Assembly (NCBI GenBank): GCA_963708075.1
Contig: OY970194.1
Location: forward strand, 5,504,001-5,568,000
DNA: 64,000 nt
Direction: 5' to 3'
DNA from: Sedimentisphaerales bacterium
GTDB lineage: Bacteria > Planctomycetota > Phycisphaerae > Sedimentisphaerales > Anaerobacaceae
Shown: positions 6,834-17,380 of the stretch, in pieces
How the letters are laid out: each line of letters opens with the position of its first letter
How positions within the stretch are numbered: the stretch's first letter is position 1
Notes under the pieces: model-generated
Databases searched by the model: none
The model's input: only the letters and a program-made list of their open reading frames with translations
What the model was told of the DNA's origin: nothing
Translations under genes and position numbers: made by a program

Positions 6834-7886
6834 ATGAATATAGATCAGCTTGATTACGAGCTGCCGTCCGAGTTGATCGCGCAGGAGCCCGCTGCGGTGC
6901 GCAGCGAGTCCCGGCTGCTGGTGCTGGATCGGGCGACAGGGGGGCTGACGGACACGCGGTTCAGCCGGGTGGGCGACTTTCTGCGCCCGGGCGACTGCCT
7001 CGTCCTCAACGATACCCGCGTGCTGCCGGCGCGGTTTTTCGCCCGCCGCCGGACGGGGGGCAGGCTGGAAGGCCTGTTCCTGCGCACGACCGACATGCCT
7101 GAAGTCTGGGAGGTGATGCTCAAAGGCCAGCGCCGGCTCAAGTCGAGGGAGCACATCCAGCTCCAGAGCCGCGATGGATGGGATTACTGCCCGGCGGAAG
7201 TGCTCGCGAAAAAGTCTGATGGCGTCTGCCTGCTGGCCGTACCGGGAAAACCAACTCCGGAGGCGGTGCTTGCAGAGATCGGTTTTCCTCCGCTGCCGCC
7301 CTACATCCGCCGGGACCGCGACTTGGACAAAGCCCTCATTGACCGCGAGCGGTATCAGACCGTGTACGCCCGCCATCCGGGAGCCATAGCCGCCCCGACC
7401 GCCGGCCTGCACTTCACGCAGGAGCTGATTCAGCATCTGCAGGAGCAACAGGTGCGCTTCGCCCGCGTCACCCTGCACGTCGGCGCCGGCACGTTCAAGC
7501 CGATCGCGACCGAGCGCGTCGAAGATCATCCCATCCATCAGGAGTGGTACCGGATCGATGAGGAAAACGCGGCCGTCATCAACGCTGCCCGCGACGGCGG
7601 CGGACGCATCATCGCCATCGGCACGACCGCCGTGCGGACCCTGGAAACCGTCGCCGATGCCGGCCGGGTGAGCCCCGGCGCAGGCACGACGGACATTTTC
7701 ATCACGCCCGGCTACACCTTCAAAATCATCGATGCGATGATCACGAACTTTCACCTGCCCAGGTCCACGCTGCTCGCCCTGGTCGCCGCGTTCGCCGGCC
7801 TGGAGGAAATCCACAAGGCCTATCGCCACGCGATCGAGCAACGCTACCGCTTCTACTCCTATGGCGACGCCATGCTGATCATCTGA
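6834..7886 (+). CDS. queA: S-adenosylmethionine:tRNA ribosyltransferase-isomerase
   Basis: Motifs DYELPSELIAQEP, LVLNDTRVLPAR, PLPPYIRR, AAPTAGLHFT, TLHVGAGTF, TNFHLPRSTL, YRFYSYGDAMLI. Confidence 0.97.
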   Translation: MNIDQLDYELPSELIAQEPAAVRSESRLLVLDRATGGLTDTRFSRVGDFLRPGDCLVLNDTRVLPARFFARRRTGGRLEGLFLRTTDMPEVWEVMLKGQRRLKSREHIQLQSRDGWDYCPAEVLAKKSDGVCLLAVPGKPTPEAVLAEIGFPPLPPYIRRDRDLDKALIDRERYQTVYARHPGAIAAPTAGLHFTQELIQHLQEQQVRFARVTLHVGAGTFKPIATERVEDHPIHQEWYRIDEENAAVINAARDGGGRIIAIGTTAVRTLETVADAGRVSPGAGTTDIFITPGYTFKIIDAMITNFHLPRSTLLALVAAFAGLEEIHKAYRHAIEQRYRFYSYGDAMLII

Positions 7887-8416
7887 CGAACTGCGAGAGT
7901 GGCATCGTCAATCGCTGTTCGTAGTGACGCCGAGAGGCGTTCCTGCGTATGCCCTTACGGGCACACTACAAACAAAGCCCGCGGCTTTGGCGAAGGCCTG
8001 CTTGAATGCGCCAACGACCATCGGCACGCTGCGCTTGCCGCTGCCACACGGAGAACACGCTGCTTTTCACGGGCCTTTGGAGATTCTCCTGCCGCGCTTT
8101 AAGGAAATGCCTTACGACTCATCGCACAGTGCCGCACCGTATGTATGCACAGGTACGGCTCGTGCTGAAGGAGTGGGTGCGATTTCGTTACGCCATGGGG
8201 GTGGATATGACGGAAGCCGGATCAAGGTCAGTTGCCGACACTCAATCGTTCGTGGAAACGGATGTTGATGTCTGAGTAGCTCCGCCGGCAAGAGTATTGT
8301 GCAGTGCCGGTCGCTGCGATGCAGTCAACAGGAATTGCCTCCGAGAGCATCGTCCGGCCGGCGGAGGGGCGCCTCCTGGGAGAGGCGCCCCATATTTGAA
8401 CTGGAATTGAAGAAAC

Positions 8417-10396
8417 ATGGTAACACAGAAGTTCACAGGCGAAACCGTCTCCCCCGGGGCGGCCAAAGGACGCCTGGTATTCTTTCAGGATGAGTATGAC
8501 TATGGCTTCTCTGGATTGGAAGAGGCGGCCACAGGCGATGTGCAGCGGCAAATCGCCCGGTTCGAGGACCATGTGGAGTTTCTTGTCAAGGAGTTGACGG
8601 AAGCGGTCTATGTTCTGGAGCACGAGTCGGCGATCGAAGAGGCGGAGATCCTCAGGACTCATATCTATCTGGTCAAGGACCCCAAGTTCCATCAGGACGT
8701 GCGCCAGGAGATCATCGAGCATGGGCGGGCGGCGGAAACCGCTATCGAGGCTACGCTGCGCAAGATGATCGTCGCCTTCGAGCGCTCGGAGAATGATCTG
8801 ATTTCCGAGCGGGCCGGCGATATCCGCGACATCCTCAGCCGGTTGAGCCGGCGGGTGAACCAGCAGAGCCGTCAGGCCTTCGAGGCGCTGCGGGGATCGG
8901 GAGCGATCGTTCTGGCGACAAGGGAGCTGTTGCCCTCGATCGTGCTGGAAGCACGGCATAGCAGCGTCGTGGGTTTCGTGGTCGAGCGGGGCAGCGGCTT
9001 ATCTCACGCCGCTATCCTGGCCAAGTCGCTCGGCTTTCCAATGATCCGCGTGGATGACCTGCGGGCGCTGGAGACGGCGGCGAACCAGGAGGTGCTCATC
9101 GATGCGACGAACGGCAGCATTGTCGTAGCGCCAGGCATACAGGAGGTCGTGCAGAGCCTGGACCCGGCCTCCTCACTGGGCAGGCTGGACCGCGCCACAC
9201 TGCCGGCTCGATTATGGGTGAACGTTGCCGATCCCGGCCAAGTGTCGTCGGGACTGCTCGAGAGGGTCGAGGGCGTCGGGCTCTATCGCACCGAGGTCCT
9301 GTTCATGGAGCAGACGGATGATTTCCCGAGCGAGCAGCAGCAGTACGAGGTGTATAAGTCGCTCTTTGAGACGTGCCGGCCGGACCATCCTGTGACCATT
9401 CGCACGGCCGACATCGGCGGCGACAAGACGCTGCCCTATTTCTCGTTCGGTTCCAGGGAAAATCCCTATCTGAGCATACGGGCCTTGCGGGTCTACCGCG
9501 AGCACCCGGAGATCTTCATCATCCAGATGCGGGCCATCCTGCGGGCGGCGGTCAATGCTTCGGGGCTGCGCGTGATGTACCCCATGGTCGCAAGCGTGGA
9601 GGACCTTGCCTTCCTCCGCAAGCTGATCACCGAAGTGATTCGCAGCCTGGAGGCCCGCGGCGAGACGTACCAGAGCAATTTCCAGCAGGGGATCATGATC
9701 GAGGTCCCCTCGGCGGTCTGGAACTGCAAAGAGCTTCTCGACGTGGTCGATTTTGCCAGCGTGGGCACGAACGATCTGCTCCAGTACTTCTTCGCAGTCA
9801 ATCGCGACGACATCGACGCCACCCAGGGCTACCGGGTGCAGAACCCCGTGGCGTTGCAGATGCTCAAGCACATCGTCGATTGTGCGGGCAAGGCGGGCAA
9901 GCCGTTGAGCATCTGCGGCGAGATCGCCTCGGACCCGCAATTGGTGCCCCTGCTGATCGGGCTCGGCTTTCACGACCTGAGCGTCGATGTTCACTTCGTT
10001 TCGCAGATCGAGCAGATCATATCGGGCCTGGACCTTGCCGCGTGCGAGCGGCTGGCGGACCAGTGCCTCAAGGCGCACAGCTCCCAGGAAGTGAGAAAGC
10101 TGTTGAGCGACTCCGTCGTCACGCGAAAGTCCACGGGCAATGGCGGCACACCCGGCCACGGCCGCGCGATCGATCCGGTGTGCGAGATCCTGATGGACAT
10201 CGCCGACAGCAGCCTGGCCATCACGCGCGAGGGTCGAACGCTGTATTTCTGCTCCGCACGATGCCGGGATGAGTACTTCCGCCGGGAGTTGTACAACGTT
10301 GAACGTGCGGTGAATCCGTCCGGCAAGCTGTACACTATCGCAGTCGCTCCGGAGGGCTGGGCGGCAGCCTGGCGAGGTGGGAAAAGTCTCCAATGA
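8417..10396 (+). CDS. PEP-protein phosphotransferase (PTS Enzyme I-like) with C-terminal YHS/TRASH domain
   Basis: Phospho-His motif GSGLSHAAILAKSLG. PEP-binding motifs GVGLYRTE, IRTADIGGDK, ENPYLSIR, SVGTNDLLQY, ICGEIASD. C-terminal IDPVCEILMD...YFCSARC. Confidence 0.9.
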   Translation: MVTQKFTGETVSPGAAKGRLVFFQDEYDYGFSGLEEAATGDVQRQIARFEDHVEFLVKELTEAVYVLEHESAIEEAEILRTHIYLVKDPKFHQDVRQEIIEHGRAAETAIEATLRKMIVAFERSENDLISERAGDIRDILSRLSRRVNQQSRQAFEALRGSGAIVLATRELLPSIVLEARHSSVVGFVVERGSGLSHAAILAKSLGFPMIRVDDLRALETAANQEVLIDATNGSIVVAPGIQEVVQSLDPASSLGRLDRATLPARLWVNVADPGQVSSGLLERVEGVGLYRTEVLFMEQTDDFPSEQQQYEVYKSLFETCRPDHPVTIRTADIGGDKTLPYFSFGSRENPYLSIRALRVYREHPEIFIIQMRAILRAAVNASGLRVMYPMVASVEDLAFLRKLITEVIRSLEARGETYQSNFQQGIMIEVPSAVWNCKELLDVVDFASVGTNDLLQYFFAVNRDDIDATQGYRVQNPVALQMLKHIVDCAGKAGKPLSICGEIASDPQLVPLLIGLGFHDLSVDVHFVSQIEQIISGLDLAACERLADQCLKAHSSQEVRKLLSDSVVTRKSTGNGGTPGHGRAIDPVCEILMDIADSSLAITREGRTLYFCSARCRDEYFRRELYNVERAVNPSGKLYTIAVAPEGWAAAWRGGKSLQ

Positions 10397-12595
10397 AATC
10401 GCAGAGCGATTCAAACGATAACAAGGCGTCGCACGAGCACGTCACGGAGCACGTGGAACACGTCCGGCACGGCGAACGATACGAGCGCGTGCATCGCCAT
10501 CCGAAGCCCGAGCACCATGAAGCCGCCGGGCGCAAGAGCACATAGCGCACGAGAAGGACCAGTTGGCGGCCCATGCTCTGCACGGTCCTCACGCAGGCGG
10601 CCACGCGGCTCATCACTCCCACATGGTGGAGGACTTCCGCAGGCGATTCTGGATCTCCCTCGCGGCGACGGTGCCCATCGTGGTTCTCTCGCCGATGGTT
10701 CAGGAGATGCTTGGCTTTCGGCTCGCCTTTCCGGGCGACGTGTGGGTCCTGTTCGCCCTCTCCACGTTCGTCTTCTTCTACGGCGGCCGGCCCTTCCTGA
10801 AAGGGCTTGTCGATGAGCTGCGGGACCGGCTGCCGGGCATGATGACGCTGATCGGCCTGGCTATCACCGTCGCGTATGCGTACAGCAGCCTGGTCGTCTT
10901 CGGCCTGCGCGGGCAGCTCTTCTTCTGGGAGCTGGCCACGCTGATCGACATCATGTTGCTGGGCCACTGGATCGAGATGCGCTCCGTGATGGGCGCGTCG
11001 AGGGCGCTGGAGGATTTGGCCAGGTTGCTGCCGGCCGAGGCGCATCGGCTCGAGGCGGACGGCTCTGTTCGGGACGTCCCGCTGGGTCAACTGCAGCAAG
11101 GGGACAACGTGCTGGTCCGCCCCGGCGAGAGGATTCCCGCCGACGGCCGGATCGTCTATGGTGAAAGCGAAATTGACGAGTCCATGATTACCGGCGAGTC
11201 CCGGCCGGTCGCCAGGAAACAGGACGACCAGGTGATCGGCGGCTCCGTCAACGGCACCGGCTCGCTGACCATCGACGTGACCCGGACGGGTGAGGATTCC
11301 TACCTGTCGCAAGTGGTCAAGCTCGTCGAGCAGGCCTCCGCCGGCAAGTCTCGGCGCAGGGCTTGGCGGACAAGGCCGCGTTCGCGCTCACCGTGATCGC
11401 CCTGGCGGTCGGCACAATCACACTCGTCGTGTGGCTGGTTCTCGGCCAGCGGTTCGCCTTCGCCCTGGAGCGGATGGTCACCGTGATGGTCATCACGTGT
11501 CCGCACGCCCTCGGACTGGCGGTGCCGCTGGTGGTCGCGATGATCACCGCGGTGTCGGCCCGTAACGGCCTGCTGATCCGCAATAGAATCCAGTTCGAAA
11601 ACGCCCGTAACCTCGACACGGTCGTCTTCGACAAGACGGGAACGCTGACGAAAGGGCAGTTCGGCGTCAGCGACGTGGTCAGCTTCGGCGGCTGGAGCCG
11701 GGACGACCTGCTGCGAAAGGCCGCCTCCATCGAGCAGAACTCGGAACACTCCATCGCCCGGGGCATCGTGCGCCAGGCACAGGAGAAGGGCTTGCCGCTC
11801 GCGAGCGTCACCAACTTCGACTCCATCCCCGGACAAGGCGCGAAAGCGGCCGTGGATGGGGAGGAGATTTACATCGGCAATATGCGAATCCTCGCGAGCG
11901 CCCGCGCCGATGCAAGTCGGGTGCTGACGAAAGTCGATGAGATCGCCTCGCAGGGCAAGACGATCGTGCTCGTCGCCGCCGGCGGCAAGGTCCATGGGCT
12001 GATCGCCCTGGCGGACATCATCCGCGAGGAGTCCCGGCAGGCTGTCGCGATGCTCAGGCAGCAGAACCTGCAGGTCGCCATGATTACCGGCGACAACGAA
12101 GCCACCGCCCGCTATGTGGCCGGGGAACTCGGGCTCGATACGTACTTTGCCGAGGTCCTGCCCGACCGGAAATCGCAGAAGATCAAGGAGCTTCAGGAGC
12201 AGGGCAGGCGAGTGGCCATGGTCGGCGACGGCGTGAACGACGCCCCGGCGCTGGCGCAGGCCGACGTGGGCATCGCGATCGGGGCGGGAACGGACGTGGC
12301 CATCGAGACGGCCGACGTCATTCTCGTCGAGAACGATCCGCGGGACGTGGCCGACGTGATTTCGCTCTCGCGGCTGGCGAATCGCAAGATGATGCAGAAC
12401 CTCGTCTGGGCGACGGGCTACAACGTGATCGCCATTCCGCTGGCAGCCGGCGTGCTGTATGGGTACGGCATCATCCTGCCGCCTGCCGTCGGGGCCCTGG
12501 TCATGTCCCTGAGCACCGTCATCGTAGCCATCAACGCCCGGCTCATCCGCTACGGCAAACGCGGCAACAGGATGGCCGGGGGAGAATATCGATGA
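10393..12595 (+). CDS. copB: copper-exporting P1B-type ATPase (CopB/P1B-3 type) with His-rich N-terminus; two apparent frameshifts (~10530, ~11355)
   Basis: ATG overlaps the EI stop (ATGA). His-rich leader HEHVTEHVEHVRH. Motifs TGES, CPHALGLA, DKTGTLT, GDGVNDAP, GYN and MSLST are spread over three frames. Confidence 0.88.
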
Positions 12596-12732
12596 AACCC
12601 GGCGGGCCGTTGAGCATCGAGCACAGGCTGATCGAGCGGATGGTCAGGCTGCTCGCCGACGAGCTGCGGGCGATGATCCACGAGAAATACCGGAGACTCG
12701 TGGAAGAGAACGAAAAGGCGCTGGCGCGTTGA
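12592..12732 (+). pseudogene. 46-codon internally deleted remnant of a hemerythrin/HHE-domain protein
   Basis: MKPGGPLSIEHRLIERMV resembles the N-terminus, and MIHEKYRRLVE the C-terminus, of a hemerythrin-like family (recalled, not searched). ATGA-coupled to copB. Confidence 0.6.
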
Positions 12733-12767
12733 GAATTTTCGGGTGCAGGGAAAACCGGGGACTGAAA

Positions 12768-13826
12768 ATGGATACCAGTCATATACTTTCTGCGAGCGAT
12801 CTGTACCGCTGGGTCGATGACCTCGTCGGCCGGTTCCGCGTGTTCGGGCCGGTCCTTCAGAAGAGAAACCAGACCACGTTCGAGCCGATCCACGACAGCG
12901 GACAACTGAACCTCGACTACTGCAGCACGATGCTCGGCCCGCGGTCATTCATCTACCCGTCCGTACAGAAGCTCCTCGAGATCGACCACAAGACAAACGC
13001 GTACAAGGTCGTCGATCCTGGGCCGGAGCAGACGCAACTGATTTTCGCCATCCACCCGTGCGATATGCACGCGATCACTGTGCTTGACAGGACTTTCCTC
13101 GGCTATTTTCAAGATTATTACTACTCCAAGCTGCGGGAGGAAACGTTTACAGTGGTGCTGAACTGTAATCGGGCCTGTGACAAGGGATTCTGTCCGTCGA
13201 TGGGCACGGGCCCGTTCCTGCGGATTCAGGAAGGGTACGATGTCGAGATGACCTCTCTGGGTGACGAGTTTCTGCTGGAGAGTGGCTCCGAGCGAGGCCG
13301 CGAGCTGATCGAGGCCGCCCCGGGCGTCAGGACCGCGAGTGAGGAACACCTGCAAAGGAAGGCGGCGATCGAGGAGCAGGCGACGGCCTCTTTCAAAAAG
13401 AGTATCGATACAGACGGTCTACCCGAGCTATTGATGCAAACTCTCGATCACCCGGTATACAAGGAGGTCGCCGACGAGCGCTGCCTCGGGTGCACGAATT
13501 GCACGATGGTCTGCCCGACGTGCTACTGCTACAACGTCGTGGATCGCTCGGACTTCGGCCCCGAGCCGATTGAGCGGAGGCGGCAGTGGGATTCGTGCCA
13601 GGACCTGTACTTCGCACAGGTCCACACGGGCAATTTCCGCGCGCCGCAACAGGCCCGCCTGCGGCAGTTTCTCACCCACAAGCTGGGCACATGGCTCGAG
13701 CAATACGGGTGCTTCGGTTGTATTGGCTGCGGCCGCTGCATGACCTGGTGTCCCACGGAGATCGACATCACGGAAATGGCCAAGGAGATTCAACGCGCCC
13801 CGGCGAGGGGATTGGAGCAGGAGTAG
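12768..13826 (+). CDS. sulfhydrogenase beta subunit (HydB/AsrA-like 4Fe-4S dicluster protein)
   Basis: CLGCTNCTMVCPTCYC, WDSC, GCIGCGRCMTWCP and HPCD motifs. Confidence 0.9.
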   Translation: MDTSHILSASDLYRWVDDLVGRFRVFGPVLQKRNQTTFEPIHDSGQLNLDYCSTMLGPRSFIYPSVQKLLEIDHKTNAYKVVDPGPEQTQLIFAIHPCDMHAITVLDRTFLGYFQDYYYSKLREETFTVVLNCNRACDKGFCPSMGTGPFLRIQEGYDVEMTSLGDEFLLESGSERGRELIEAAPGVRTASEEHLQRKAAIEEQATASFKKSIDTDGLPELLMQTLDHPVYKEVADERCLGCTNCTMVCPTCYCYNVVDRSDFGPEPIERRRQWDSCQDLYFAQVHTGNFRAPQQARLRQFLTHKLGTWLEQYGCFGCIGCGRCMTWCPTEIDITEMAKEIQRAPARGLEQE

Positions 13827-14690
13827 ATGACGATGAGCAGACTGGCTGTCAATCCGTTAGTCGCCGAGCTGGCTCGCGTCGAGGGAAAAGTCGAGGAAAC
13901 CGCCGACACGATTTCGCTGCGGTTTTCGCACATCAGTTCTGAGCCGCTGGCTTATAAGCCCGGCCAATTCAATATGATCGGCTTCCCGGGATTTGGCGAG
14001 GCGCCATTCTCGTTCAGCTCCCTGGATGCCGGCGATGGGACATTCGTTCACACGATCCGTGCGGCGGGAAATGTGGTCTCCGCCTTGCAGCGGCTTGAGC
14101 GGGGCGATCAGTTGGCATTCCGCGGCCCGTTCGGCACCGGCTGGCCACTCAAGGGCGCCCGGGGCAAAAACCTGCTCATCGTGGCCGGCGGGATCGGCAT
14201 GGCCCCCCTGCGCCCGGTCGTGTACTACGTGCTGAAGAACCGGGACAGCTTTCGCGATGTCTATCTGCTCTACGGGGCGAAGAAATCCGATGATCTGCTG
14301 TACGAGCGAGAGTTTGCCCGTTGGAGCGAGGAGATGACCGTGCTGCTGGCCGCCGAGCAGAGCCTGCCCTCGACCAGATCGAGGGTGCAGGGCGAGTTTA
14401 ATCTGCCGGTCCACGAGGGTCTTGTGACGAAGCTGTTCAAGTCTGTGCATGTACCGCTGCCCGAGACGATCACGTTCACGTGCGGGCCTCAGGTCATGAT
14501 CAAATTCGTCGCCGGCTTGCTGATCCTCGACGGGCAGCGGCCGGACGATATCTACCTCTCTCTCGAACGCAGAATGAAGTGCGGCATCGGGCATTGCGGC
14601 CATTGCCAGATCGGCGCCAGGTACGTCTGCCAGGACGGCCCGGTCTTCCCTCTGGCCGATATCACCCGGTTTCAGGACACTCTGCTTTAG
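13827..14690 (+). CDS. sulfhydrogenase gamma subunit (FAD/NAD(P)-binding, 2Fe-2S; HydG/AsrB-like)
   Basis: PGQFNM, RGPFGTGWP, VAGGIGMAPLR, CGP, ERRMKCGIGHCGHC..VCQDGPVF. Confidence 0.92.
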   Translation: MTMSRLAVNPLVAELARVEGKVEETADTISLRFSHISSEPLAYKPGQFNMIGFPGFGEAPFSFSSLDAGDGTFVHTIRAAGNVVSALQRLERGDQLAFRGPFGTGWPLKGARGKNLLIVAGGIGMAPLRPVVYYVLKNRDSFRDVYLLYGAKKSDDLLYEREFARWSEEMTVLLAAEQSLPSTRSRVQGEFNLPVHEGLVTKLFKSVHVPLPETITFTCGPQVMIKFVAGLLILDGQRPDDIYLSLERRMKCGIGHCGHCQIGARYVCQDGPVFPLADITRFQDTLL

Positions 14691-14699
14691 GAGCAGTCT

Positions 14700-14770
14700 G
14701 TAGGGTGGGTCCTTGACCCACGCGTTTGCCATCGAGGGTTCCTGCCGCGTGGGTTAAGAACCCACCCTAC
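14700..14770. repeat. GTAG-type REP doublet inside the hydrogenase operon
   Basis: Inverted pair GTAGGGTGGGTCCTTGACCCACGCG ... CGCGTGGGTTAAGAACCCACCCTAC. Confidence 0.8.
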
Positions 14771-14804
14771 ATGTTGGCGTGACATCTTTTCGGAAGATCG
14801 AGTT

Positions 14805-15593
14805 ATGAGCGACGGCAAACCCAGGATCGGGGTGTTCAAATACAGTTGCTGTGCGGGCTGTGAGTTCCAGTTGATCTTCTTTCAGAAGTACGTACTGGAG
14901 ACGTTCGAGACCGCCGAGATCATTTATTGCCCGATGCTGCAATCCGGCGGCGTGGAGGACGGTCCCTTCGACGTGGCGCTGATCGAAGGGACGGTCACGG
15001 AGGACTGGCAGGCGGAGCAGTTGAGGAAGGTCCGGAGCATCAGCAAGTGGGTGATCCCCATCGGCTCCTGCGCCGTCTGCGGCGGTGTGCCGGCGATCAA
15101 GAACACACAGGAGGAATACCTCGTTCAGAATCGAGTCTACGCGGACACGTCCAAGGTGCATTCGGTCCGGGCGCACTCCATCGACCAATATGTCCCCGTG
15201 GACGGCTATATCAAGGGCTGCCCGATGGGCGATCGCGACCTGACGGAATTCGTGACCTCGCTGCTGCTGGGCAAGCGGCCGGATTTCCTGTGCTCGGCCG
15301 TCTGCGTCGAATGCAAGCTCAAGGGCAACATCTGCGTGCTGGTCGCGTACGGCTGGCCCTGCATGGGGCCGGTGACCAACTCCGGCTGCGGCGCCCTGTG
15401 CCCCTCCCATGACCGAGCCTGCTACGGCTGTTGGGGGCCCATGGCCTCCGCCAATTCCAGGGCGCTGGCCAACCGGTTCTCGCGGCTGGGACTCACGCCT
15501 GAGGACGTGTACAGGAAGTTTACGGAATTCGGGGAACCCACCAGGGAATGGAAAGCCGGACAGGTGAGAAAGTGGGAAGTCGCACAAAAATAG
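14805..15593 (+). CDS. [NiFe] hydrogenase group 3b small (delta) subunit
   Basis: CCAGC, IEG, IGSCAVCGG, GCP, VCVECK..C, CMGPVT..GCGALCP...CYGC. Confidence 0.92.
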   Translation: MSDGKPRIGVFKYSCCAGCEFQLIFFQKYVLETFETAEIIYCPMLQSGGVEDGPFDVALIEGTVTEDWQAEQLRKVRSISKWVIPIGSCAVCGGVPAIKNTQEEYLVQNRVYADTSKVHSVRAHSIDQYVPVDGYIKGCPMGDRDLTEFVTSLLLGKRPDFLCSAVCVECKLKGNICVLVAYGWPCMGPVTNSGCGALCPSHDRACYGCWGPMASANSRALANRFSRLGLTPEDVYRKFTEFGEPTREWKAGQVRKWEVAQK

Positions 15594-16830
15594 AAGTGAA
15601 TTACATAGCGAGGGTGGAAGGCGAGGCGGCGCTGGCTGTGGAGCTCGATGGCGAGACGTTCCTGCAATTGAAGATTTTCGAGCCCCCGCGGTTTTTCGAG
15701 GGCTTTCTCGTCGGCCGCAAGTATGACGAGGTCGGGGACATCGTCTCGCGGATCTGCGGGATCTGCCCGGTGTCCCACATGATCACGGCGATCCAGGCCG
15801 TTGAGAGAGCCACGGGGATCGAGGTCAGCGAGCAGACACTGACGCTGCGGCGGCTCATGTGCCTCAGCCAGATCGTCGCCAGCCACCTGGTGCACTTGTA
15901 CGTGCTGGCAATGCCGGACTATTACGGCTTTCCCGGAATCGTCGGTATGCAGGAGCGATTCGGCGACCGGCTCCTGCGGCTGATGCGGATGAAGGACGTG
16001 GTGAACAAGCTGACCGGTATCATCGGCGGCCGGGCGCTGCACCCGGTGACCGCGTTGCCCGGCGGCTTTACGGCAATCCCGAAGCAACGGGATTTTGCCG
16101 ACGTTCTGGAGGAACTGAAAGCGATCCGGCAGGACGCCGCGCAGGTGGTCCACGACGTCGCCGATTTCAAGATGCCCGACTTCCACGCGGATTGTGAGCA
16201 CCTGGCCCTTAATGTCGAGCAGCGGTACGCGATCAACGGTGGCACGATCGTCTCCGACAAGGGGCTGGCCATCGAGATCGAGCAGTACGGCGAGTATTTC
16301 CATGAGACCGAAGTCCCGTATGCGTTCACCAAGAAATCCACGATTGGGGACCAGACCACGATCCGGGTCGGTGCCCTGGCAAGGATGAACAACAAATTCG
16401 ACAAACTCCAGGAAGGTACGAAATCGCTCGCGCGGGAGATCGGCTTCTCGCCGCCGGATGATAATCCGTTTCATAACAACCTGGCGCAGAGCCTTGAGGT
16501 GGTGGACGGGGTCGAGCAGTGCATCCAGATCCTTGAGAACCGCCTCATTCGAGGACGAGGAGATTTACGCAAGCCCGGAGGCGGGCGAGGGCGGCGCGAT
16601 GACCGAGGCGCCTTCGCGGCCTGCTGTACCACTGGTACAGGATCGACAGGCAGGGAGTCGTCGAGGAGGCCAACATCGTTACGCCCACCTCTCACAACTT
16701 CCGGGTCATCGAGAGGGACCTGAAGGAGTTGGTCACCCGGCACCGGGACCTGGAGTCATCCACGCTGCGGCTTCTGTGCGAACAGCTCGTGCGGGCCTAC
16801 GACCCGTGTTTCTCCTGTTCCGTGCATTGA
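15572..16830 (+). CDS. [NiFe] hydrogenase group 3b large (alpha) subunit; two apparent +1 indels (~16548, ~16614)
   Basis: RVEGE, EPPRFFE, L1 motif RICGICPVSH, EAP(R)GLLYH, and L2 motif RAYDPCFSCSVH followed directly by TGA at 16828-16830. Start codon uncertain. Confidence 0.9.
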
Positions 16831-16867
16831 ATCATAAATAGATAATCGTGAACCCCAGGGGTGTAAC

Positions 16868-17275
16868 ATGATCGAGTATGGATTCGTCAAAGAGCTGGAT
16901 ATGGATTTTGAATCGGCCCTGGAAACGGTGAAAAACTCGCTGAGAGAGGAAGGCTTCAACATCCTGACGGCCATCGACGTCCGGGAGAAACTACAGGAGA
17001 AGCTCGGCGTCGATTTCCCGAAGTACGTGATCCTCGGCGCATGCGACGCCACCAGTGCGCACAAGGCGCTGATGGTGGAAGAGAATATTGGGTTGATGCT
17101 GCCCTGCAATGTGGTCGTGCACGAGAGCGACGGCAAGACCGTCGTGGCGGCGATCCGGCCGACCGTCGCCATGCAGATGATCGATAATCTCGATCTGCGG
17201 CGCATCGCCAAAGATGTCGAGCGCAGGCTCAAGCACGTCATCGACTCCCTCCAGCCGGTGGAGGCACTGACATAG
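16868..17275 (+). CDS. DUF302 domain protein
   Basis: EGFNILTAIDV, YVILGAC, IGLMLPCNVVV pattern. Confidence 0.85.
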   Translation: MIEYGFVKELDMDFESALETVKNSLREEGFNILTAIDVREKLQEKLGVDFPKYVILGACDATSAHKALMVEENIGLMLPCNVVVHESDGKTVVAAIRPTVAMQMIDNLDLRRIAKDVERRLKHVIDSLQPVEALT

Positions 17276-17305
17276 GTCACAGACTGCCCGCCGGCAAATA
17301 ACGGC

Positions 17306-17380
17306 GGGTGGCAGCGGCAAGCAGAGAGAGGCGGAGCTTGCCGATGCCACCCAGCACAGTGCCCTAAAACTCGCACAGAC
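17306..17380. repeat. REP-like palindrome, GGGTGGCA family; inverted near-copy at 52743-52817
   Basis: GGGTGGCAGCGGCAAG...CTTGCCGATGCCACCC plus ~28 nt of flank shared with 52743-52817. Confidence 0.8.

Follow-up and report, generated by a model that had tools for sequence, protein, structure and literature searches.

A clade of PTS Enzyme I proteins with a C-terminal YHS/TRASH tail and a putative link to copper

Within the window, the 64-kb stretch of DNA that was analysed, a single open frame encodes an Enzyme I (EI) that continues into a YHS/TRASH tail (EI-YHS; P0001). It is followed directly by a copper P1B-ATPase gene, with the EI-YHS stop codon (10394-10396) overlapping the ATPase ATG (10393), and then by a hemerythrin remnant, a set of sulfhydrogenase-like NiFe hydrogenase genes and a DUF302 gene (Table 1). 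No sigma-70-like promoter was found at 7850-8450. Short REP-like repeats, present in dozens to more than 150 genome copies, flank the cassette at 7900-8060 and 17280-17380. A joint between 8032 and 17336 in run X1 raised the possibility of an excisable element, which we rejected because both of its ends copy these genome-wide short repeats.

Table 1. Features of the EI-YHS gene and the cassette downstream of it, in window coordinates
Feature	Coordinates	Strand	Basis
EI-YHS gene (P0001)	8417..10396	+	single open frame, 659 aa
EIN, with the HPr-binding alpha subdomain and the subdomain of the phospho-His (His197, 9005-9007)	8417..9136	+	Pfam PF05524/PF00391; alignment to 2HWG
Shortened EIN-EIC linker, bounds approximate	9137..9211	+	His-to-GLYR distance; alignment
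EIC PEP-binding/dimerisation barrel and C-terminal helices	9212..10108	+	Pfam; alignment to 2HWG; clade residue counts
YHS/TRASH module, putative ligands D586, C589, C612, C616	10166..10280	+	motif spacing as in PMC4626032
Lineage-specific C-terminal extension, runs into the start of the following gene (overlap ATGA; GAGGT upstream)	10290..10396	+	
Copper P1B-ATPase, His-rich N-terminus, CPH motif	10393..12595	+	sequence/profile matches; intact orthologue L037
Hemerythrin (HHE) remnant	12580..12726	+	gene intact in L037
Sulfhydrogenase-like NiFe hydrogenase genes beta, gamma, delta, alpha	12729..16831	+	Pfam/profile matches; neighbour of EI-YHS
DUF302 gene, closes cassette	16868..17275	+	Pfam

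As the initial annotation had proposed, a complete EI runs in one frame (8417-10396) into the tail (about 10166-10280): the protein has the Pfam domains PF05524 (residues 8-132), PF00391 (165-233) and PF02896 (266-537), and passes TIGR01417 (PTS Enzyme I) with 389.1 bits against a cut-off of 341.7. It reaches neither the PtsI equivalog PRK11177 (315.6 versus 824 bits) nor the EI-Ntr/PtsP equivalog PRK11061 (339.2 versus 583 bits), a Pfam search found no GAF domain in it, and the PEP synthase and PPDK profiles match its C-domain in part only, at scores far under their cut-offs. The catalytic motifs picked out at that stage align with E. coli EI (2HWG), pairing the phospho-His of SHAAI, His197 (codon 9005-9007), with His189 and the active-site Cys of ICGE, Cys500 (codon 9914-9916), with Cys502. 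The EIC barrel carries R291, R329, D332, R355, E429, N452, D453, R463 and C500, and the enzyme is predicted to be soluble.

Since genes adjoining EI-YHS contain frame breaks, we checked the EI/YHS junction against contigs from two sequencing runs. A contig from run X1, possibly the source sample, spans 9560-10249 with 2 differing letters and no gaps, and one from run X2, which belongs to another study, spans 10039-10317 with 4 differing letters and no gaps. The fusion predicted from the window is therefore confirmed in read-derived contigs, with no indel or stop separating its two parts, and the same architecture (EI plus four-ligand tail) is present in 177 homologues. An assembly artefact, for which the frame breaks next door might have spoken, is refuted by these two lines of evidence, and we put its probability close to nil. 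Several frame breaks do lie in the copper ATPase (10393-12595; two breaks, near 10540 and 11352) and in the hydrogenase large-subunit (alpha) gene (15548-16831; near 16540-16620). These are likely long-read assembly errors, because two of the broken regions, one of them near 11352, are covered by short-read contigs with a single gap each, and an orthologue of the ATPase (L037:9898-12123) is intact and passes TIGR01511.

To place the protein among other EIs, we combined three homologue searches with trees of the EI part alone. When representatives at 50% identity are listed, the tail is borne by 25 of the top 32 (24 by pattern, one by eye), and below these the list drops to ordinary EI. A profile of the EI part only, built from 24 tail-bearing proteins and scored on 327 near-full-length proteins with fragments left out, separated 195 proteins that reach at least 600 bits, a set that includes a few near-duplicates, from 132 that score lower. 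The 115 non-redundant members are monophyletic in FastTree (0.999), as are the 11 of them that were included in IQ-TREE (100/1). Their well-supported sister is a three-member tail-less group (P0151, P0154, P0289) that keeps the full linker, and the two together join seven Pfam-verified GAF-EIs, the host's included, with moderate support (0.85; 89.9/0.995). Given this support and an outgroup taken from the top matches, we suggest only tentatively that EI-YHS descended from the PtsP side.

Source names in the clade include Sedimentisphaerales, Phycisphaerales, Deferrisoma camini, Marispirochaeta aestuarii, Zixibacteria, Rhodothermia, Gemmatimonadota and Deltaproteobacteria. Of 24 genomes from the host's genus, 7 have EI-YHS; it is present in none of 37 other relatives at a clade-level score, and 400 sampled genomes of the phylum gave no full junction match besides the host; this patchy distribution fits lateral spread of the gene. 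One genus-mate (G011) has two copies from different subclades, L120 inside a YHS-rich island and L117 outside it, and the copy in genome G021 is broken. Among the matches listed from 530 matching plasmid records there was only ordinary EI, at 30-34%, and the five loci matched in viral contigs were likewise all ordinary EI. The nearest ESM Atlas clusters, at 0.90, were ordinary EI with no YHS, a blank that is not informative there. A weak search at E 1e-60 returned no longer fused forms of EI-YHS, and long clade members showed no extra Pfam domains.

Thirteen active-site positions (H197, R291, E293, R329, D332, R355, R358, E429, N452, D453, R463, C500, G501) are kept in 115 of 115 non-redundant members, and EI-YHS is therefore very likely catalytically active, the roles of the single Arg, Asp and Glu positions being those that we take them to have. 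The window copy also has the clade-typical W267, R361, W435, C543 and C550, of which the two cysteines are conserved in 110 and 100 of the 115 members, respectively. The alpha subdomain retains I78, H82, D88, R132, D135 and D138. Where 94 of 132 other EIs have a Tyr (E. coli position 122), Tyr does not rank among the five residues most frequent in the clade, and the equivalent of F73 is also changed; we take the six retained positions and the Tyr122 equivalent to face HPr. The distance from the phospho-His to GLYR has a median of 94 residues (90-98) across the 115 members versus 107 (100-114) in other EIs, owing to a clade-wide deletion in the helical linker between EIN and EIC; some 13 residues are lost there, the TxDG motif among them, a stretch that the tail-less sister group keeps. 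All 115 members thus have a shorter linker than the long helical one typical of Enzyme I. In E. coli EI this linker forms part of the network for allosteric closure (PMC13598208, PMC8295985). With the Tyr122 equivalent gone and the linker short, neither the use of HPr nor ordinary domain closure by EI-YHS can be taken as assured.

The tail of P0001 (IDPVC...YFCSARC) has the spacing D586-x2-C589-x22-C612-x3-C616. The isolated tail scores 21.4 bits with PF04945, under the cut-off of 30.3, and is unlisted in the whole-protein search. The window copy is thus divergent, and many homologues exceed the cut-off (for example P0318, the Deferrisoma camini protein, with 44.1 and P0337 with 36.8 bits). 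Its closest PDB matches, which are weak (best E 0.009), are TRASH-type ribosomal L24e proteins. All four ligands are intact in 177 of the 195 clade proteins, among them proteins named for Deferrisoma camini and Marispirochaeta aestuarii, and 167 of these 177 have the 22-residue spacing. The same spacing is found in the C-terminal YHS domain of a Mycobacterium phlei adenylyl cyclase belonging to class IIIc (D178/C181/C204/C208), in which Cu2+ is reported to switch the enzyme on, with no such effect of Zn, Fe, Cr, Co or Ni, and EDTA to reverse the copper effect (PMC4626032). The cyclase thus shows that copper can specifically turn on a dimeric enzyme through a C-terminal YHS; the study reportedly included no Cys or ligand mutants, and Cu(I), Ag and Cd were not among the metals tried. 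It also describes an L24e TRASH domain that bound Cd in the crystal and a hydroxylase YHS that bound nothing, and a Sec-containing YHS family is listed elsewhere (PMC13188914).

The tail is not intact in 12 of 66 near proteins, which form the window's subclade, versus 6 of 129 distant ones, although part of these counts may reflect frameshifts or contig ends. Three close relatives (P0005, P0009, P0011) have lost the FCSxxC half through internal deletions, and the naturally tail-less clade members retain every catalytic residue. Pooled dN/dS over eight near loci is 0.38 for YHS, compared with 0.24 for EIN and 0.18 for EIC. The value for YHS reflects purifying selection on the tail; since it exceeds those of both EI parts and tail loss is more frequent nearby, the tail appears to be selected yet relaxed in the window's lineage.

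The host already has a ptsN-ptsH-ptsI cluster (C1:6.44 Mb) and a GAF-EI (C1:58 kb), so EI-YHS is the third EI of the genome, beside PtsI and GAF-PtsP. There is one HPr (PF00381) and there are six EIIA domains (PF00359) in the genome; all of these matches fall outside the window, bearing out the earlier remark that it contains no HPr or EII gene. The EIIA domains stand alone, sit on two HTH-like N-termini or end one membrane transporter-like protein, labels that we apply presumptively. In the host genome (93% complete) there was no match to PF02378, PF03609, PF03610 or HPrK. With no EIIC, EIIA-Man or HPrK match, the host PTS is regulatory and not a sugar-uptake system. Five of five other carrier genomes have one HPr each, the metagenome contigs L037, L038 and L045 being outside this count.

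We then compared the neighbours of EI-YHS with those of ordinary EIs in one search over 17 clade loci (224 kb) and 71 ordinary EI loci (842 kb). Copper-type neighbours (P1B ATPase, CsoR, HMA or other YHS) were found at 9 of the 17 clade loci versus none of the 71, in a comparison whose query proteins came from clade loci, whose related loci are not independent, and in which three of the nine positives (L040, L042, L120) are circular, their sole marker being another YHS protein; P1B, CsoR or CusA markers were found at 6 of 17. HPr or EIIA neighbours occur at 0 of 17 clade loci versus 15 of 71 others. Where neighbours could be typed they were of copper type (TIGR01511 for the ATPase of L037, a RicR/CsoR-like repressor in L044), and the RND protein of L041 is of the CusA/CzcA type. 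The order of genes in L037 is nearly that of the window cassette. All seven loci beyond the window's subclade have copper-type neighbours, as opposed to 2 of the 10 within it; the other eight adjoin PRC-barrel, AI-2E, CheX or trehalose genes, one of them (L117) with a CDF transporter. Genus-mates with EI-YHS also match the copper-ATPase cassette in 6 of 6 cases, versus 5 of 17 without it, with only 12 candidates scored in each of the 23 genomes. The ATPase cassette stands without an adjacent EI in all eight genus stretches that were fetched, and no neighbour is common to all clade loci.

In the clade islands, YHS is attached to unrelated proteins (thioredoxin-reductase-like, P1B ATPases) or stands alone. 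A YHS fused to a thioredoxin-reductase/AhpF-like flavoprotein lies downstream of EI-YHS at L040:6435-7496, L043:1052-2167 and L120:2653-3693, with DUF5676 present in two of these loci. A CheX phosphatase gene lies directly 3' of EI-YHS at L035:8869-9339 and L036:6876-7403, and two distant loci (L044:9784-11491, L045:9882-11719) have methyltransferase and periplasmic binding protein neighbours in common. As for the cassette of copper ATPase, (hemerythrin), sulfhydrogenase-like operon and DUF302 itself, up to 11 of the 23 genus-mates have all or some of it (10393-17275; L177-L182, L184).

Invariance of the ligands, the precedent from M. phlei and the copper-gene neighbours together support a metal link for EI-YHS, most likely to copper. 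The metal-responsive entry point to a phosphorelay envisaged in the initial annotation is upheld to this extent, although the link is weaker in the window's own subclade, where 8 of 10 loci are copper-free and 12 of 66 tails are not intact. As a working model, on which our confidence is evenly divided, we propose that EI-YHS is a copper-gated accessory EI feeding the host's HPr. Copper would bind the four-ligand tail and, once bound, switch the PEP-driven phosphorylation of His197; the phosphoryl group would then pass in trans to the only HPr of the host and from there to the EIIA proteins; and the output would be an altered phosphorylation of EIIA, whether lone, borne by HTH-like regulators or borne by the membrane transporter-like protein. 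We infer copper as the ligand from the M. phlei precedent and the neighbours, and by the same analogy copper would activate the enzyme rather than inhibit it. HPr is the presumed acceptor because the alpha subdomain is retained and no other carrier was found.

Several other readings would fit parts of these data. EI-YHS might be an ungated backup, co-expressed with copper genes and supplying EI when copper poisons the thiol-dependent housekeeping EI, while its tail buffers copper or holds a structural zinc. The attachment of YHS to many unrelated proteins in the islands, the natural tail-less members with all catalytic residues, and the Cd-bound L24e TRASH and empty hydroxylase YHS described in PMC4626032 would suit such a role. 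We nevertheless consider it unlikely, since the enzyme keeps the catalytic Cys500 and so has no obvious protection against copper, the linker shortened throughout the clade suggests that control has changed, and the sole tested enzyme-YHS fusion that we found is gated. A role of the three cysteines in sensing the oxidation of thiols, or a soft metal other than copper (Ag, Cd, Hg, Zn), is rather improbable: the YHS-thioredoxin-reductase-like neighbours at three loci, the CDF transporter adjoining L117, the extra conserved C543 and C550 and the listing of a Sec-containing YHS family are all compatible with this, but the neighbouring pumps and regulators are of copper type where typed, and the M. 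phlei effect is reported to be copper-specific and EDTA-reversible (PMC4626032). In the window's lineage the gene could also be a relaxed passenger that is losing its tail, with a copper role only in distant members. Against the internal deletions, the losses among near proteins, the copper-poor subclade loci and the broken G021 copy, which all lean this way, stand the window copy, which keeps four ligands and overlaps the ATPase start, and a YHS dN/dS below 1; we regard this reading as very improbable.

The acceptor is a separate matter. A copper-gated EI-YHS whose drifted alpha subdomain phosphorylates a protein other than HPr would account for the lack of HPr/EIIA neighbours at the 17 loci, for the changed Y122 and F73 equivalents and for the movement of EI-YHS among phyla as a lone gene. 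Such an acceptor seems improbable to us, as the six positions that we take to face HPr are kept, no neighbour is common to all loci, the (weak) search found no fused acceptor, and HPr is present in 6 of 6 carrier genomes tested. A bolder form of the idea, which we likewise consider a long shot, would make EI-YHS a mobile one-gene copper-sensing phosphoryl donor, the PEP-fuelled counterpart of a sensor kinase, which the short linker keeps off until copper binds and which acts on a target other than HPr.

Set against known systems, our preferred reading of EI-YHS as a copper-gated accessory EI comes nearest to EI-Ntr/PtsP, which is also an extra EI paralogue with a small appended sensor in a regulatory PTS, and which is the nearest large group in both trees, with moderate support. 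In PtsP, glutamine on the GAF domain inhibits autophosphorylation (PMC4848567). EI-YHS differs in having its sensor at the C-terminus and of a Cys-rich metal type rather than as an N-terminal (glutamine) GAF, in its linker, shorter by about 13 residues, and in its place among copper genes, in a host with a GAF-EI of its own. It shares the three-domain core, all catalytic residues and TIGR01417 with PtsI (about 31% identity to the host's), but is not beside ptsH, carries the YHS tail and shortened linker, and is patchily distributed. The M. phlei cyclase, also a dimeric signalling enzyme whose C-terminal YHS has the D-x2-C-x22-C-x3-C spacing, has an unrelated catalytic domain, an output of cAMP rather than phospho-His, and 8 residues before the YHS in place of the roughly 20 variable ones in EI-YHS (PMC4626032). 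The same motif on copper P1B-ATPases and L24e is N-terminal on pumps or stands alone, whereas here it is borne by a phosphotransferase. A full-text search of literature outside subscription journals returned no description of EI-YHS and no report of testing copper as a switch of its relay; JGI automatic names on fragments read 'EI component/YHS domain-containing protein'. By its sequence, EI-YHS is a genuine clade of EIs, so far uncharacterised, and appears to be a variant among the sensor EIs.

The inputs known for Enzyme I signal carbon and nitrogen status (PEP, alpha-ketoglutarate, glutamine). If the copper-gated reading is correct, a dedicated clade of EIs that end in a metal-binding module would open the PTS to a toxic metal as input, and would constitute a third type of EI beside PtsI and PtsP, spread with copper islands through mostly uncultured bacteria, where automatic annotation conceals it as plain ptsI. 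EI-YHS is directly testable, as two named species carry the gene, the protein is predicted to be soluble and standard assays exist, and its natural tail-less and short-linker forms bear on the control of EI domain closure. Should the reading as a mobile donor instead be true, PTS chemistry would have been reused outside the PTS for metal stress.
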